This document shows, piece by piece, positions 25,083 to 59,079 of a stretch of 64,000 nt of DNA. Within the stretch, counting starts at the first letter, position 1. The number at the start of each line of letters is the position of its first letter. The DNA comes from Eledone cirrhosa (Eukaryota). Position numbers and translations under genes: made by a program. Where the stretch lies: positions 55,490,001-55,554,000 of the forward strand of contig OZ024742.1 in assembly GCA_964016885.1 (NCBI GenBank), given 5' to 3'. The notes beneath the pieces are model-generated. The model searched no databases. It worked only from the letters and a program-made list of their open reading frames with translations, and was not told the DNA's origin.

Positions 25083-25815
25083 ATGTATATCAATATTTGT
25101 ATGTGCATATTTATATATATATATATATATAATATTTGTAAATCAAACTTTAGCTGCAGTACAGCATGTACAATTCGATTTGTTTTTAGGCAATCACAGA
25201 GTACTCAATGGATTTAAAGTTAAAAACAAATATTAAATCCAGAGTTAAACACCGTAGTTGTAAAATGTGACACCAAGATAACTGACCGAAGGCACAAACT
25301 ATACATACAACAACATAGTGATATATACAAAGAACATTGTCATGCCTGGAACATCTTCGATAGATTAAAATCGATATAAATTATAAAATACCGGATAGGT
25401 TTCTGGAAACACTATGAGTTATATAATACACAAGTAAATCATATACATACAATACATGTGTACTTCCACGGTCGAATTGGAGCTCTTTCGACTGCAAGCT
25501 TCGTCCTTTATTAAAAAAATTCAACTGACCACATAATTTTACGCTGCCTGTAGCATTGTAGCAGTAATCCAATCTGCAGTCATGTGACCTTATATATATA
25601 TATATATATATATATATATATATATATATATATATATATATATATATATATATATATATATATATATATATATATATATATATATGTATATATATATATT
25701 CATATATACATATATATATGTGTGTGTGTGTGTGGCTTTCCTTTATTTTCATAGACAACATTACTATATACATATATATATATATATATATATATATATA
25801 TACATATATATATAG

Positions 25816-26245
25816 TGAAAGAGTGAAGAATAACATGATCAACAGTACAAAAAGGGTTTTATTTACTGTATTAAAAATTTTTTCATTGATTAAGTTGTCT
25901 AAAAATTGCTAATCACTTGAAGTTGTGTCACTCAATTTTAAATACATTTTATTTAAAATTGAGTGATACAACTTCGAGTTATTAGCAATTTTGAGACAAC
26001 TTAATCAATGAAACAATTGTTAATACTGTCAATAAAACCCCTTTTGTACTGTTGACAATGTTATTCTTCACTCTTTCATTATTATTACTCCAAGATTAAC
26101 TTGCATGGGAACTCCCAAGAACTCACTAACTTGCTACCTAAAGAAACCTCTTGTTGAGTCAAACAACGCTGTACACTAAAACTTTCCACAATATGAATTA
26201 TTCACTGCCTCTAACTGGATTACCTATAATGATAATTTTTTATCC
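25816..26245. mobile_element. Asymmetric inverted-repeat insertion in (TA)n
   Basis: Arms ~25816-25943 and ~25951-26078. Right-arm extension to ~26245. TA tracts on both sides. Confidence 0.75.
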
Positions 26246-26289
26246 TATATATATATATATATATATATGAGTGCGCGCGTGTGTGTGTA

Positions 26290-26595
26290 ATGAACAAAAT
26301 GATATTTCAATGAGGTTTCTATTGATTATGCTCGGTCACTATTGTTGCACAGATGGGTGGCTCAAGATCCTTATTTTTATTTGTTTTATAGACCCGACTC
26401 CAGCCACATCTCCTCATTTGTGACTTGATGTTCTATGGTGAGATTCTGCTTTTGCTTGATTAGTAAGTGTGATGAACAGATTGGGTCTGGAGTCGGGTCT
26501 ATTGCACAAATATGGATGTTGAGTCACTCATCTGTGAAACGTTCGTAACTCTAACTAATCAATAAAGGTTTCAATACGAAACCGTGTTTTGATCT
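26290..26595 (+). other. ~300-nt imperfect rod-like hairpin
   Basis: 26388-26403 is a perfect complement of 26487-26502. 26348-26370 pairs with 26514-26536, and pairing extends to the ends. Confidence 0.8.
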
Positions 26596-26852
26596 ACTTA
26601 ATATATACACTGTGCTCTAGCATAGAGTGAAAATATAGGCACCTTTCTCAGTAAAGCAAAAATCTGATGAGTCTTTTGATGAATCTGATGAATCTTTTGA
26701 TGAATCTGATGAGTCTTTTGATATATATATATATAATTTTCTTTCCTTGTGCTATTTAATTGTAAGAGACTATTTTGAGTTTCCAACTCAATATATATAT
26801 ATATATATATATATATATATATATATATATATATATATATATATATATATAT

Positions 26853-27465
26853 ATCAAAGGTATATATTGAGTTGGAAACTCAAAATAGCCTCTTACAATT
26901 AATTAGCCCAAAGAAAGAAAATTTTTCCTGGCCGTATGATATAATTCAATATAAAAGAGAGAAAAATACAGATTATATGCATATATGTGTTCAAATAGTC
27001 AGGGACCAGATTCGCTAGGGTGAAAAAAATACTAACTATGAACAATAGAATTCTACTTTCTTTTATCATATATATATATATTATTGTTGCTATACATATT
27101 TTGTTGAGTGTTATAAGGTATTTCATAACGTGTAAATTCCTCAATCTCAGGAATGAAATAATTAAAGTAATGCACATTTATGGCTTGTATAATTTAAATA
27201 GTGAGTTAAATTATCCATCGAATATATTGCATTGTATTTGTGATGTACCTTTCTATGACTTGTCCTTTTTGTTTTATTAGCTTTCGGAGATAATGCTTCA
27301 ATCAATTTCCTCATTTCTGTATTTTGTATTTCCTCGTTAAAAAGATATAATGTTTCTCCCATTAGGAATTTACTTCTAATAATCCCTCTCTACATAAACC
27401 TTTATGTATTTACTTGTCTATGTTTTGTAAATGGGTCGTGTTTATCTGTTGATATTCATCTGCAT
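26853..27465 (-). mobile_element. PLE-like 3' end family abutting (TA)n (other copies 26738-26790 +, 28438-28570 -, 36112-36160 -)
   Basis: Shared terminus ..GCTATTTTGAGTTTCCAACTCAATATATACCTTTGAT-(TA)n with a TTGAGT/ACTCAA hairpin. A degenerate HHR-like GAAAGCT core lies near 27275-27340. Confidence 0.6.
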
Positions 27466-27580
27466 ATGTATATATATATATATATATATATATATATATA
27501 TATATATATATTGCCGGAGTATCGCTAAAAAGCTTTCTCCGATATTGTATTTATTTATATATAAATATATATATATATAT

Positions 27581-56100: not shown

Positions 56101-56300
56101 ACATATATTTTTTTATGTGTATTTGGTGTATACGTTCTTATGTGTGCGGGTATATGTGTCGCGCATATTTATGTGTGCGTGCATGGATATGCATGCATGG
56201 CGGGTATTTTTGCGTATGCATGTGTATGTACCTATATAGATGTGTGTATGTATATATTTAATTATTATTACTTTTACGACTTTAATAACCTCTGTCATTT
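53115..56300 (-). mobile_element. Decayed Naiad-type PLE (ORF pieces 56034-54146, 3' UTR to ~53115) with an inverted UTR arm at 56040-56297
   Basis: HSDKTGNIY, KDHK, LINPTKSDLG, GGLYRDD, WYNPPY, NCNCRNRGDCPLAGKCL and CDLCAVE. 53750-54000 is repeated inverted at 56040-56297. Confidence 0.92.
53150..53213 (-). ncRNA. Type I hammerhead ribozyme
   Basis: Stem I UAUUUUAU/AUAAAAUA, CUGAUGA, stem II GUACCAAU/AUUGGUAC, GAAA-UAUAUA-UA. Confidence 0.87.
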
Positions 56301-57160
56301 TTGTTCTACTAATGTATTTACATTATTCTTAACTCCGAAGAATCATTCGGTTTCCTAAATAGAATATTACAACTCCATTTATACCATAAACGTGGTTTTG
56401 TCTTTGCGTGTATTTGTTCTCGTCGACCCACATAACGACGTATTATCTTCGATTTTTTCCCGTTGATTGCCAGGGATTGTCTTCACGAACGAAAGTATCG
56501 TCTTCTTGATTTTCTTCGGCTGCAACGTTTTTCAAAATATTTACTTCTGTGTTCACAGATTGATATTTTTAGTTTTAGAAGATGCCGTTAAGGGTGAAAG
56601 CAGGGATTCTTTGCTTAAACTTTAATCTGTTATTCTAATAAATATTTTCTCTAGGCTTCTTATATATTCGATATATATTTATCCTTATCGAGCCCTCTTT
56701 GGATTTTAGTCTTCACATTTATTATTATTACTATATATATATTGAGTTAGTATGATAGACCAAAGGCCATTATTGAAAGTCTCTGGATTTCGCAAAATAT
56801 ATAATACGTTTTAATGGAGGAGTTAAGATATTATTGCACAAATTTTGATTGCAGTGTTTTGTTTCAACTTACGTATTTTTTGAAAATGTTATTTATTCAT
56901 TATAAAAATTAAATGATAGCATTCTATATGTAAGAGAGCCCCCTTCATTTCCTGGCAAGCAATATTTTTATACCCGGTCCGCCACTGTATACACACATAC
57001 ACACATATATATATGTGTGTGTGTGTATGTGTGTGTGTGTGTGTATGCGTGTGCGTATGCGTGTGTGAATGAAGTATTTCCGTCGGAAAGGTACAGGAAA
57101 AAAGAGTGCTCTATGTAGGCTACAGAGCTTATTAGTTATGTAATAAACAACATAAGATAA

Positions 57161-57228
57161 TTATTTCATTTACCAGTGGTTTCCTGAAGGTAGATGTTAT
57201 GTCTGTCTTCAGTCGTCAGAATGAATAA
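57161..57228 (-). ncRNA. Type I hammerhead ribozyme
   Basis: UUAUUCAUU-CUGACGA-CUGAAG/CUUCAG-GAAA-CCACUGG-UA-AAUGAAAUAA. GUA cleavage triplet. Confidence 0.88.
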
Positions 57229-57612
57229 ATAACATGGTGTTATTAAATATGGATTTGAAAACAAAATATAGGAAATATGAAAGTGAGGCTGAAAAAACGG
57301 GCAAAAAGGAATTAGGGGAAAAAATATATAAATAAATATCCACAACATAAACATACACACACTCAACCATGCGCATATACGTAATAGTACGTAGACGTAT
57401 ACTTTCTCACATAAGCGTATTTGCGTCTTCATGGAAATACGAACTAGGTACTATTACGTATATGCGCGTGGTTGTGTCTGTCTAGGTTTATGTTCTGGAT
57501 ATTTATTTATATATTGTTTCCCCTAATTCCTTTTTGCCCGTTTTTTCAGCCTCACTTTTATATTTCCTAAATTTTGTTTTCAAATCCATATTTAATAAAA
57601 ACACCATGTTAT

Positions 57613-57680
57613 TTATTCATTCTGACGACTGAAGACAGACATAACATCTGCCTTCAAGAAACCACTGGTAAATGAAATAA
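57613..57680 (+). ncRNA. Type I hammerhead ribozyme (inverted partner; one stem II substitution)
   Basis: Same motif as 57161-57228, with CUUCAA instead of CUUCAG. Confidence 0.78.
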
Positions 57681-59079
57681 TTATCTTATGTTTTTTATTA
57701 CATAAATAAATATATATATGTATATATAATGCCAATCATTGTAAGTTTGAATCTAACTGACATGCAAAAAAGGTAAGCCCAAATGATAAGATTCAAATAT
57801 CATTGAGAGAAAGAAAGCGAGAGTGGAGGTGAAGAAATGAGGTGCAACAGAAATGAAACATGGATTACAGGTAAAAATATAGTCTAGAATCTAGACTATA
57901 TATAGAAGAGAATCAAAATGAGGATGTAGTTTATGGAACACCCAAATGATTTAGAAGTTGACCAAAGACCAAAGGTTATTATTGAAAGTCTCTGGATTTC
58001 GCAAAATACATGTTTTTTTTATTGGAAAAGGTAAGATATTTTTCCACAAAAATTTGATTGCAGGTTTGTTTCCACATGTATTTTATTTAAATGTTATTTA
58101 TTCATTATAAAAATTAAATGATAGCATTCTATATTCACCTGGCAACCATAATGTTAGACTCACTCCACCACTGACTATAACCCTAAAATTGTTTTTAAGA
58201 TTTGTATTTTTAATATTTCCATATTGTTTTGAGGAACATATTTCAATTCTAGATTGAATTATATTGATTATGCATTTCGTCTTACGAAAGATATCGGAAT
58301 TATTGAGTTAATATGAATGTTTTCATTCAATGTAATGTTTCGGTAAATAGTGAAGTATTCAAACCAAATGCTATTATGACAAAGTTAATTATCAATGAAA
58401 ATTACAAACTTATCCTCTAAAATACGATTTACATAGAATATTCTTACAAGATCACTCATAATGGGAATACCGATATAGTGTAATTAACGGAATCTTATTG
58501 TTGAACGACTCTCATAACCTGATTTCCGCTATAAATCATTATGATTGACGTTTTCCGGATGCTTGATGTAATATAGTTTCGGTACACATTAGTTGGAAAT
58601 AATGCTAAATGTTGAATAATCTATCAATGCACATTATTAAAATAAGAAAAATATGAAATTTATTGACGTATAGGTATCGAAGTGGAATATTTTATTAATA
58701 TTGTATGGTATTAACAGGAAAGTTGTCAGTGAAAGTTATTGCTGCATGACTACGAAAAAGGCGCTTACTTGAATTAGCCATAATAGTTTTTTTAATGGTA
58801 GTGGGATAACTATAGATTGGTTTGTTATACTTATTGATAATACAGTTTAGAAATTCAACGAAAATAGCCGTCAAAACGTAAGGGTGGTGAGAATTTACGT
58901 GGGAAGTATATTTCAGAAAATAGAATATCCGTATTGCCAATATAGATTGGAACAGAAAAAAGGAATCATCAACATCGTCCTCATTATTCTCAGACAACAA
59001 ACTGTAGTCTATTTCATTGCAGATGGATTGAGGCAAGGGAAGAATAAAATGCATTTTGAAAGTGCTTTACAATGATGTT

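Follow-up and report, generated by a model that had tools for sequence, protein, structure and literature searches.

In a stretch of 64,000 nucleotides (nt) from Eledone cirrhosa (assembly GCA_964016885.1, contig OZ024742.1, positions 55,490,001 to 55,554,000; the window), ten segments to which an earlier note had drawn attention were found to be the 3′ ends of Penelope-like elements (PLEs), inserted as 5′-truncated copies of several PLE families. Comparison of the window with itself confirmed the form that the note had described, in that all ten (10/10) consist of two oppositely oriented pieces, or arms, of one family with their 3′ ends pointing outward. Overlapping inverted arms were observed in all of them except the A1 insertion at 27583 and the B insertion at 38528, in which the second piece is tail only, and every outward 3′ end abuts a microsatellite, the left flank of the family F insertion being (TG)n rather than TA. 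Three further cases occur in the same span, in families H and J and in a composite (Table 1), and the divergence between arms in the window was 4-15%. The novelty of these elements is that of members of known PLE clades bearing a known insertion signature, to which this analysis adds a count of how their two end sites are paired (185/192) and the apparent derivation of the arms from two template copies. The explanation that we consider probable, with real room for doubt, is that each two-arm insertion arises from a TA repeat cut in both strands by the PLE protein, whereupon the two ends start reverse transcription on separate copies of the template, one at site 1 and the other at site 2.

Arm ends and their pairing

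Site 1 designates the arm end without a tail and site 2 the end of the tail arm, and the two sites bound the tail. Their use was surveyed in 109 evenly spaced 10-kb stretches of genome G000 (1.09 Mb), which held 579 inter-(TA)n segments. In 59 of the 579, one arm was flush with the tract and the other side was offset by 7-200 nt (about 3 of the 59 were simple-repeat false matches by eye), 4 were symmetric and 8 had larger offsets, whereas length-matched random segments gave 4/579 of the tail type and 0/579 symmetric ones. The earlier note had expected two sharp end peaks per family, and a bimodal distribution of arm 3′ ends was indeed observed in each well-sampled family. In unselected DNA, family B ends (n = 40) fell 17 times at -1 to 0 and 20 times at +79 to +81, and family A2 ends (n = 26) fell 12 times at 0 and 12 times at +60. 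Site 1 was sharp, while site 2 presented sub-peaks in families A1 (+45/47, +59) and C, all at positions where T, TA or AT is available in the RNA. At least two letters after site 1 fit (TA)n in 20 of 27 family references, against a background of 15%. The fixed sites of the note stood, and tails in recurrent families span about 44 to 184 nt, a wider range than its 55-90 nt.

Same-family head-to-head pairs that were not separated by a long TA tract numbered 192, of which 185 combined site 1 with site 2, 2 combined site 1 with site 1 and 5 combined site 2 with site 2. In unselected and near-window DNA, the mixed combination was found in 64 of 69 pairs (p = 2e-14 against the 50% expected from independent choice), and the proportion was 54/57 in the 1.09 Mb, 165/172 after dropping the family B loci fetched with a junction query and, with those loci likewise dropped, 138/141 in the ten largest families. 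Some of the exceptions look like mis-set references (families X, I and V), and true pairs of site 1 with site 1 and of site 2 with site 2 also exist (L206, L188). One copy of family C (L080), lying in (TAAA)n with the same strand of the repeat on both sides, had both ends shifted by 5-9 nt, a single case that fits a pre-existing target.

Other observations concern the termini themselves. Family I (26736-26980, 28440-28565 and 36113-36173 in the window; L180:2070-2447; L286:1736-2128) is an exception to the rule, with two tail ends (+76, +90) and one subfamily with symmetric pairs. Symmetric inverted-end elements in (TA)n (L095:5055-7412, L116:6760-7180, L163:2759-4360) may be same-site pairs or DNA transposons. 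Terminal pieces of 10-60 nt, tandemly repeated with (TA)n between them (L020:1560-1680, L201, L012), may reflect slippage duplication or repeated abortive priming. In 14 of 27 references (tails of B, D, E, F, M, N and others), site 1 is followed at a distance of 2-15 nt by an ACTC/GCTC word, with a GAGY (GAGT/GAGC) partner downstream in 9, a possible shared stem; in folding of the tails, none of nine termini clearly beat shuffles (best z -1.9). Homing beside the own family was also considered, and tail-to-tail same-family neighbours amounted to 7/27 (9% expected) and 3/51 (16% expected), with no consistent enrichment.

Arm shapes, junctions and templates

The claim that either arm can be the long one was borne out in 78 resolved pairs, in which the site-1 arm was longer in 30, the tail arm in 14, the two were equal in 24 and the partner was tail only in 10. 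Fold-back of a site-2 cDNA could not produce the forms with a longer site-1 arm or a tail-only partner. The arms overlapped in 68 of the 78 pairs and were non-overlapping in only 10; nine tail arms ended within -12 to +9 of site 1, and four deeper in the tail. Junctions were classed in 97 of 152 rows (family E, two A1 rows and the rows limited by reference length were left out), and by BLAST ends, which are approximate, 50 had an overlap of at least two letters, 14 were blunt and 33 carried 1-30 inserted letters. The joining of cDNAs by microhomology, as proposed in the note, is thus compatible with about half of the junctions, whereas a third of them carry inserted letters instead. A particular stop was observed in family B, in which arms at 35227-35416 and 52899-53087 and at L105, L131, L177 and L208 end in the interval from -51 to -60 relative to site 1, immediately 5′ of a GC hairpin, with five copies sharing one junction; 11 of 13 unselected site-1 arms of this family stop in the same interval.

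Whether the two arms derive from one template or from two was addressed through shared variants, from whose counts concordant sites near junctions were excluded as alignment artefacts. In family B, subfamily variants were carried by both arms in 51 cases and by one arm in 25, and arms showed 2.4 differences to their own partner versus 4.6 to others (p = 5e-5). In contrast, a recurrent variant of A1 was confined to one arm in 6 insertions and present in both arms in none (14 examined), and in family C the corresponding counts were 11 and 2 at one site and 6 and 0 at another (23 examined), a disagreement well above the background of 3.5-5% (p = 4e-4 for A1, p = 4e-9 for C). That the arms agree by subfamily yet differ at recurrent polymorphic sites argues against fold-back of a single cDNA and in favour of two primings on two template copies. 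The simplest reading is that both copies come from one source, as two units of a tandem RNA or as two RNAs.

Arms of different families may also be joined head to head. Four such joins are fairly clean and all combine site 1 with site 2 (L014:1501-1754, L048:985-1581, L112:3882-4002, L223:854-2346), the last one linking a Hydra-type arm (family B) to a Neptune-type arm (A1) across a 13-nt gap; two looser joins (L268, L097) go one each way. Cross-family joins can also result from later deletion between neighbours.

In family C, the start of the arms was concentrated near the T-loop of its tRNA-like part. With a tail-only query, 15 of 45 arm starts lay at unit positions 110-118, and 6 of 16 lay at positions 114-119 in loci that had not been fetched for this family. 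The T-loop adenine is unit position 109 (45942 in the window unit 45834-46124; L271-L300), and 21 of 61 starts fall at 110-119, just 3′ of it. This pile-up may correspond to a stop at a modification or structure, or to an annealing hot spot at the CATG/GTAC palindromes found there. Stops of reverse transcriptase (RT) at m1A58 or at the T-arm are known from retroviral and tRNA work.

How the two-arm form may arise

Much of this signature has precedents, cited here from the portions of each source that were available. According to PMC8557442, endonuclease-containing (EN+) PLEs carry an inverted 5′-truncated copy, a tail at either but often only one end, and (TA)n or other microsatellite targets, and its supplement S1 lists Hydra-1_Obim with a (TA)n preference. 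The earlier note had credited Penelope with the inverted arm alone; that arm is indeed known, but so are the presence of the tail at one end or the other and the targeting of (TA)n. The window elements also share with EN+ PLEs (PMC8557442, PMC3846280) the 5′ truncation, the partial-tandem pseudo-long terminal repeats (pLTRs) and, in some families, candidate hammerhead cores within these repeats, differing in tails of 44-184 nt versus the 30-40 nt published. The protein of the green anole Poseidon element PAc (PMC11167929) nicks and extends both strands, is a predicted dimer and, on an AT-rich target, initiates at two positions in the RNA between which lies the tail, likewise the start of the next tandem unit. 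PAc belongs to another clade, and its initiation is described as lacking homology to the cut DNA, whereas in the present elements 2-5 letters at site 1 match (TA)n. The available text of PMC11167929 gives no model for the inverted arm, that of PMC13282606 gives the number of Penelope families in an octopus but not the form of their insertions, and that of PMC9977147 holds nothing on mechanism. A literature search, which did not cover subscription papers, retrieved no paper counting PLE site pairing, deriving the two arms from two template copies or proposing two-ended priming. The origin of inverted pLTRs and one-sided tails is an open question named in PMC8557442 and, as far as the accessible parts go, left open in PMC11167929.

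The proposal of the note that both ends of a break prime reverse transcription at two programmed sites gained support from the end and pairing counts and from the two start sites shown in vitro for another PLE (PMC11167929, in its available part). In this pathway, the GIY-YIG domain would make the break, and an asymmetric complex, probably dimeric or sequential, would allot one site to each end. The template copies would be either two RNAs with a common source or two units within a single tandem RNA, and the 3′ ends of the cDNAs would anneal through 2-5 matching letters, or be end-joined with filler, before fill-in. If one end failed to extend, a single-arm insertion would result, and the minority of insertions whose tail arm stops at site 1 may represent twin priming on a single RNA. 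L1 twin priming (bioRxiv 10.1101/2024.12.14.628481, available part) is similar in that both target ends prime cDNA and head-to-head pieces are joined at their 5′-truncated ends. However, the L1 example pieces abut on one RNA, whereas here 68/78 pairs overlap and the second site is fixed rather than a chance internal match; the L1 type calls for two non-overlapping pieces of one RNA, but only 10/78 pairs are non-overlapping, and the arms differ at polymorphic sites.

The main rival is tail trimming by the nuclease, in which both cDNAs would start at site 2 and the endonuclease would later remove one tail at the pLTR-tail junction. This "EN-mediated resolution" was proposed in PMC8557442, accounts for exactly one tailless end, is compatible with two template copies and agrees with the cutting of DNA by the anole protein at its own junction between open reading frame (ORF) and pLTR (PMC11167929, both in the parts available). 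Nevertheless, two RT start sites were directly seen in vitro in the latter work, the TA or AT letters that follow site 1 in the RNA suit a (TA)n primer in 20/27 references, and a trimmed end would still need base-precise joining to the TA tract; we therefore regard trimming as unlikely, though the strongest of the alternatives. Spontaneous breaks in fragile (TA)n, captured at both ends by PLE RT-RNA complexes in an endonuclease-independent repair, would explain why one target is common to two PLE clades and a passenger, as well as the four cross-family joins, including the one between B and A1. Insertions were absent from the short TA runs inside the elements themselves, a hint that long tracts are targeted and an observation likewise in keeping with such capture. 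Yet the families retain a GIY-YIG domain with the cysteine linker that the available part of PMC8557442 ties to (TA)n targeting, independent capture at two ends gives no strict pairing of site 1 with site 2 without a further rule, and the joins can be later deletions, so this route appears improbable. The RNA-templated repair of TA microsatellites that the note had considered was accordingly neither supported nor refuted.

Slightly less probable still is that a single cDNA folds back or self-primes on a sense or antisense template, with the hairpin then opened and integrated. Self-priming on an antisense template was proposed in PMC3846280 (available part), and the near-equal arms of 24/78 pairs, the short palindromes at junctions and the match of arms by subfamily are in line with it. 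On the other hand, the longer site-1 arms (30/78), the tail-only partners (10/78), the cross-family joins and the disagreement of arms at recurrent variants oppose it, and for A1 and C self-priming is largely refuted. The note had listed assembly or fold-back artefacts among the outcomes that would refute its reading. Hairpins in AT-rich repeats are hard to assemble (PMC8557442, available part), but arms differing by 4-15%, family-specific and asymmetric ends at about 190 loci and similar opposite-strand joints in raw Illumina reads of three other samples (e.g., 56573 to 56684, with several starts each, the reads coming from other copies) make an artefact of assembly or library fold-back most improbable. 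Replication-fusion foldback does not agree with the differing flanks and the asymmetry of the ends, and was discarded.

Several results weigh against two-ended priming as set out above. Unpaired termini are numerous (n = 144 in unselected and near-window DNA), with microsatellite at the 5′ end in 19, other sequence in 71 and 54 running past the reference. The 19 are clear single-arm insertions (site 1, 7; site 2, 12), and the two-arm form is thus not obligatory. The family references were drawn from asymmetric examples, which is circular for families of one or two copies, and the two-template argument consists of three sites in two families, for which a mutation hot spot or inheritance from hairpin masters (as the five B copies with one junction) is not fully excluded. 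As noted above, 33/97 junctions have inserted letters in place of microhomology. No empty site was found, given that 8 of 178 flank pairs had both flanks elsewhere and none was a clear pre-insertion allele, and cut geometry and target duplication were unseen; read mapping on 52700-58000 showed no empty allele, although reads there were swamped by other copies, and no RNA source containing the sequence was listed, a negative without bearing on expression. Finally, the anole protein showed no start-site difference between strands in vitro, according to the available part of PMC11167929.

A broader and more tentative version, which we hold to be less likely than not, is a PLE-specific integration in which an asymmetric two-RNA complex would prime at the two sides of a double-strand cut, always using site 1 on one side and site 2 on the other, and would join two first-strand cDNAs without conventional second-strand priming. 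The RNAs might even belong to different clades, and passengers such as family C might use a tRNA mimic, possibly with a modified T-loop adenine, as a built-in stop aligning the cDNA ends. Any mechanism must account for the use of each site by one end, for the greater length of either arm, for two copies of the template and for the occurrence of single arms, rules that can be tested in the existing in vitro system. A rough extrapolation from the 1.09 Mb places the number of such insertions genome-wide in the order of 100,000, and short hairpins of this kind could be mistaken for miniature inverted-repeat transposable elements or microRNA precursors in annotation.

Element families and the inventory of the window

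The note had spoken of unrelated families, which describes their terminal DNA, in which matches were found only for A1-A2, D-E and F-F2, plus a weak 32-nt match between E2 and S. At the protein level it fails, since most belong to one PLE clade, the B, D, F and K proteins being 35-63% identical to the product of the 49164 ORF. This protein, with which the note had proposed to reconstitute the reaction, belongs to family E only. Longer copies connect the terminal stubs to ORFs with RT and GIY-YIG in families B, D, E and F. Family B represents the end of a 1.4-kb 3′ untranslated region (UTR) behind an ORF 38% identical to that at 49164, the ORFs at 41908 and 49164 have the D and E termini, respectively, as their pLTRs, and the D copy at 41908 is 63% identical to the 49164 ORF over 133 aa. 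Family F was tied to its ORF through L301 and L302; a link through L262 was dropped, as that ORF is of family K.

The 49164 ORF contains the motifs RWR, DKT and YRDD, a CxCx5C linker, GIY-YIG, CxxC and CxH, with no CCHH. Its model (pLDDT 90) had the TERT structure 3du5_A as best Foldseek match (E = 3.5e-9), while sequence searches of Pfam and PDB gave no RT match above threshold. YRDD/YVDD cores of RT are present in E, D and A1, YIG motifs lie C-terminally in E, B, K and A1, and PF01541 was weakly matched by 8 of 70 aligned relatives (best E = 0.0011). The CxCx5C linker is common to B, D, F, K and 49164, DKT was read in K, and RWK in the F copy at L301. Families B, D, E and F thus appear, from their motifs, to carry the signature of the Hydra clade, which shares with the window elements (TA)n as a target, the motif set of the 49164 ORF and the linker of B, D, F and K (PMC8557442, available part). 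Unlike the usual Hydra unit of <3 kb, that of family E is ~3.85 kb. Hammerhead cores, by sequence, were found in A1, A2, D, E and F and in none of the scanned stretches of B (1.3 kb), C and K, with no Rfam hammerhead match. Because no canonical core was found in B or K, though hammerheads are described as universal in Hydra, both were filed by protein motifs only. Family A constitutes a second, Neptune/Nematis-like clade; Neptune and Nematis are marked by a CX2-5CxxC linker before a C-terminal GIY-YIG with CCHH. The A1 linker CTNRKCIIC (CX4CxxC) precedes the nuclease core, two cysteines lie within the core, and A1 had no BLASTP match at E<0.01 to Hydra-type proteins.

In the family E element, the pLTR at 48545-49023 is repeated at 52398-52862 and the tail sits before the ATG. 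The tail is the start of the next tandem unit, as seen at 49024-49164 of the window and in the A1 locus L035, which reads through the tail into the ORF start. Family C consists of 291-nt units repeated head to tail, is non-coding and includes a weak tRNA-like stretch, in which ARAGORN found no tRNA and Rfam gave only sub-threshold tRNA matches plus microsatellite and hairpin noise. It resembles the non-LTR retrozymes (bioRxiv 10.64898/2026.07.22.740005, available part) in being non-coding, tandem and inserted with a PLE signature, differing in its tRNA-like part and in having no CUGANGA..GAAA hammerhead core on either strand, whereas one Type I hammerhead per unit is the retrozyme hallmark. 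It behaves like a retrozyme but is not classed as one.

Table 1. Two-arm insertions, PLE copies and a nested element in the window
Feature	Position	Strand	Details
Family H two-arm insertion	25815..26245		Site-1 arm left, arm with ~167-nt tail right
Family A1 insertion	27583..27774		Site-1 arm (-, 27583-27733) joined to non-overlapping tail-only piece (+)
Family J two-arm insertion	27939..28410		108-nt tail on left
Family A1 insertion	28603..29781		Short tail arm (-) and 1.1-kb site-1 arm (+), the latter with GIY-YIG end of A1 ORF and hammerhead core at 29546
Family C insertion (non-coding tandem passenger)	29854..30137		Site-1 arm and tail arm; junction just 3′ of T-loop of tRNA-like part
Family B insertion	35227..35416		Tail arm (80-nt tail) left, site-1 arm right
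Family A2 insertion	35577..36062		Site-1 arm and arm with 60-nt tail; hammerhead core 35765 (-)
Family B insertion	38528..38651		51-nt site-1 arm joined to tail-only piece stopping at site 1
Family D insertion	38790..41881		Tail arm (89-nt tail, to ~39600) and long site-1 arm with GIY-YIG remnant 39610-39906 and hammerhead core 41778; broken up by later insertions (LINE piece, SINE, microsatellites)
Nested unrelated LINE fragment	40034..41026	-	zf-RVT match, weak; adjoins (ATT)n
Broken family D PLE copy	41908..45184	+	RT and GIY-YIG pieces, 3′ UTR, pLTR
Family C insertion	45210..46124		Both arms with tandem 291-nt units; site 1 on left and tail on right; tRNA-like stretch around 45887-45955
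Family E PLE	48545..52862	+	pLTR, tail, ORF, 3′ UTR, pLTR ending at site 1; hammerhead cores at 48927 and 52766
Open 742-aa ORF of family E	49164..51392	+	TERT-like RT, GIY-YIG; putative Hydra-clade motif set
Family B older subfamily insertion	52899..53087		Site-1 arm left, tail arm right
Composite	53110..56731		E-like site-1 end (-), broken family K ORF (-, 54149-56040), family K tail arm (+, ends 56731)
Family F insertion	57068..57709		(TG)n flanks the tail arm (tail of 64-67 nt) and TA the site-1 arm; hammerhead cores 57219 (-), 57622 (+)
LINE, long interspersed element; SINE, short interspersed element.

In the composite, an E-like site-1 arm is fused to a K ORF arm without an end of its own, followed by the K tail arm, a configuration that may reflect template switch or deletion. 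A (TAAAAA)65 array at 42716-43102 separates the RT and nuclease parts of the broken family D ORF and resembles the Asn-rich linker inserts of rotifer Penelopes; the A1 copy L200 also presents an Asn-rich insert. A GIY-YIG fragment with a CxxC linker at 15501-15878 (-) (PF01541, E = 3e-5) belongs to another PLE family. An abundant SINE-like family of ~190 nt, 73-94% alike, was found at 3178, 7999, 10624, 16564, 33470, 41044, 46642 and 46809, and, besides the nested fragment at 40034-41026, another LINE-type fragment lies at 5116-5475 (-), both beside trinucleotide repeats.

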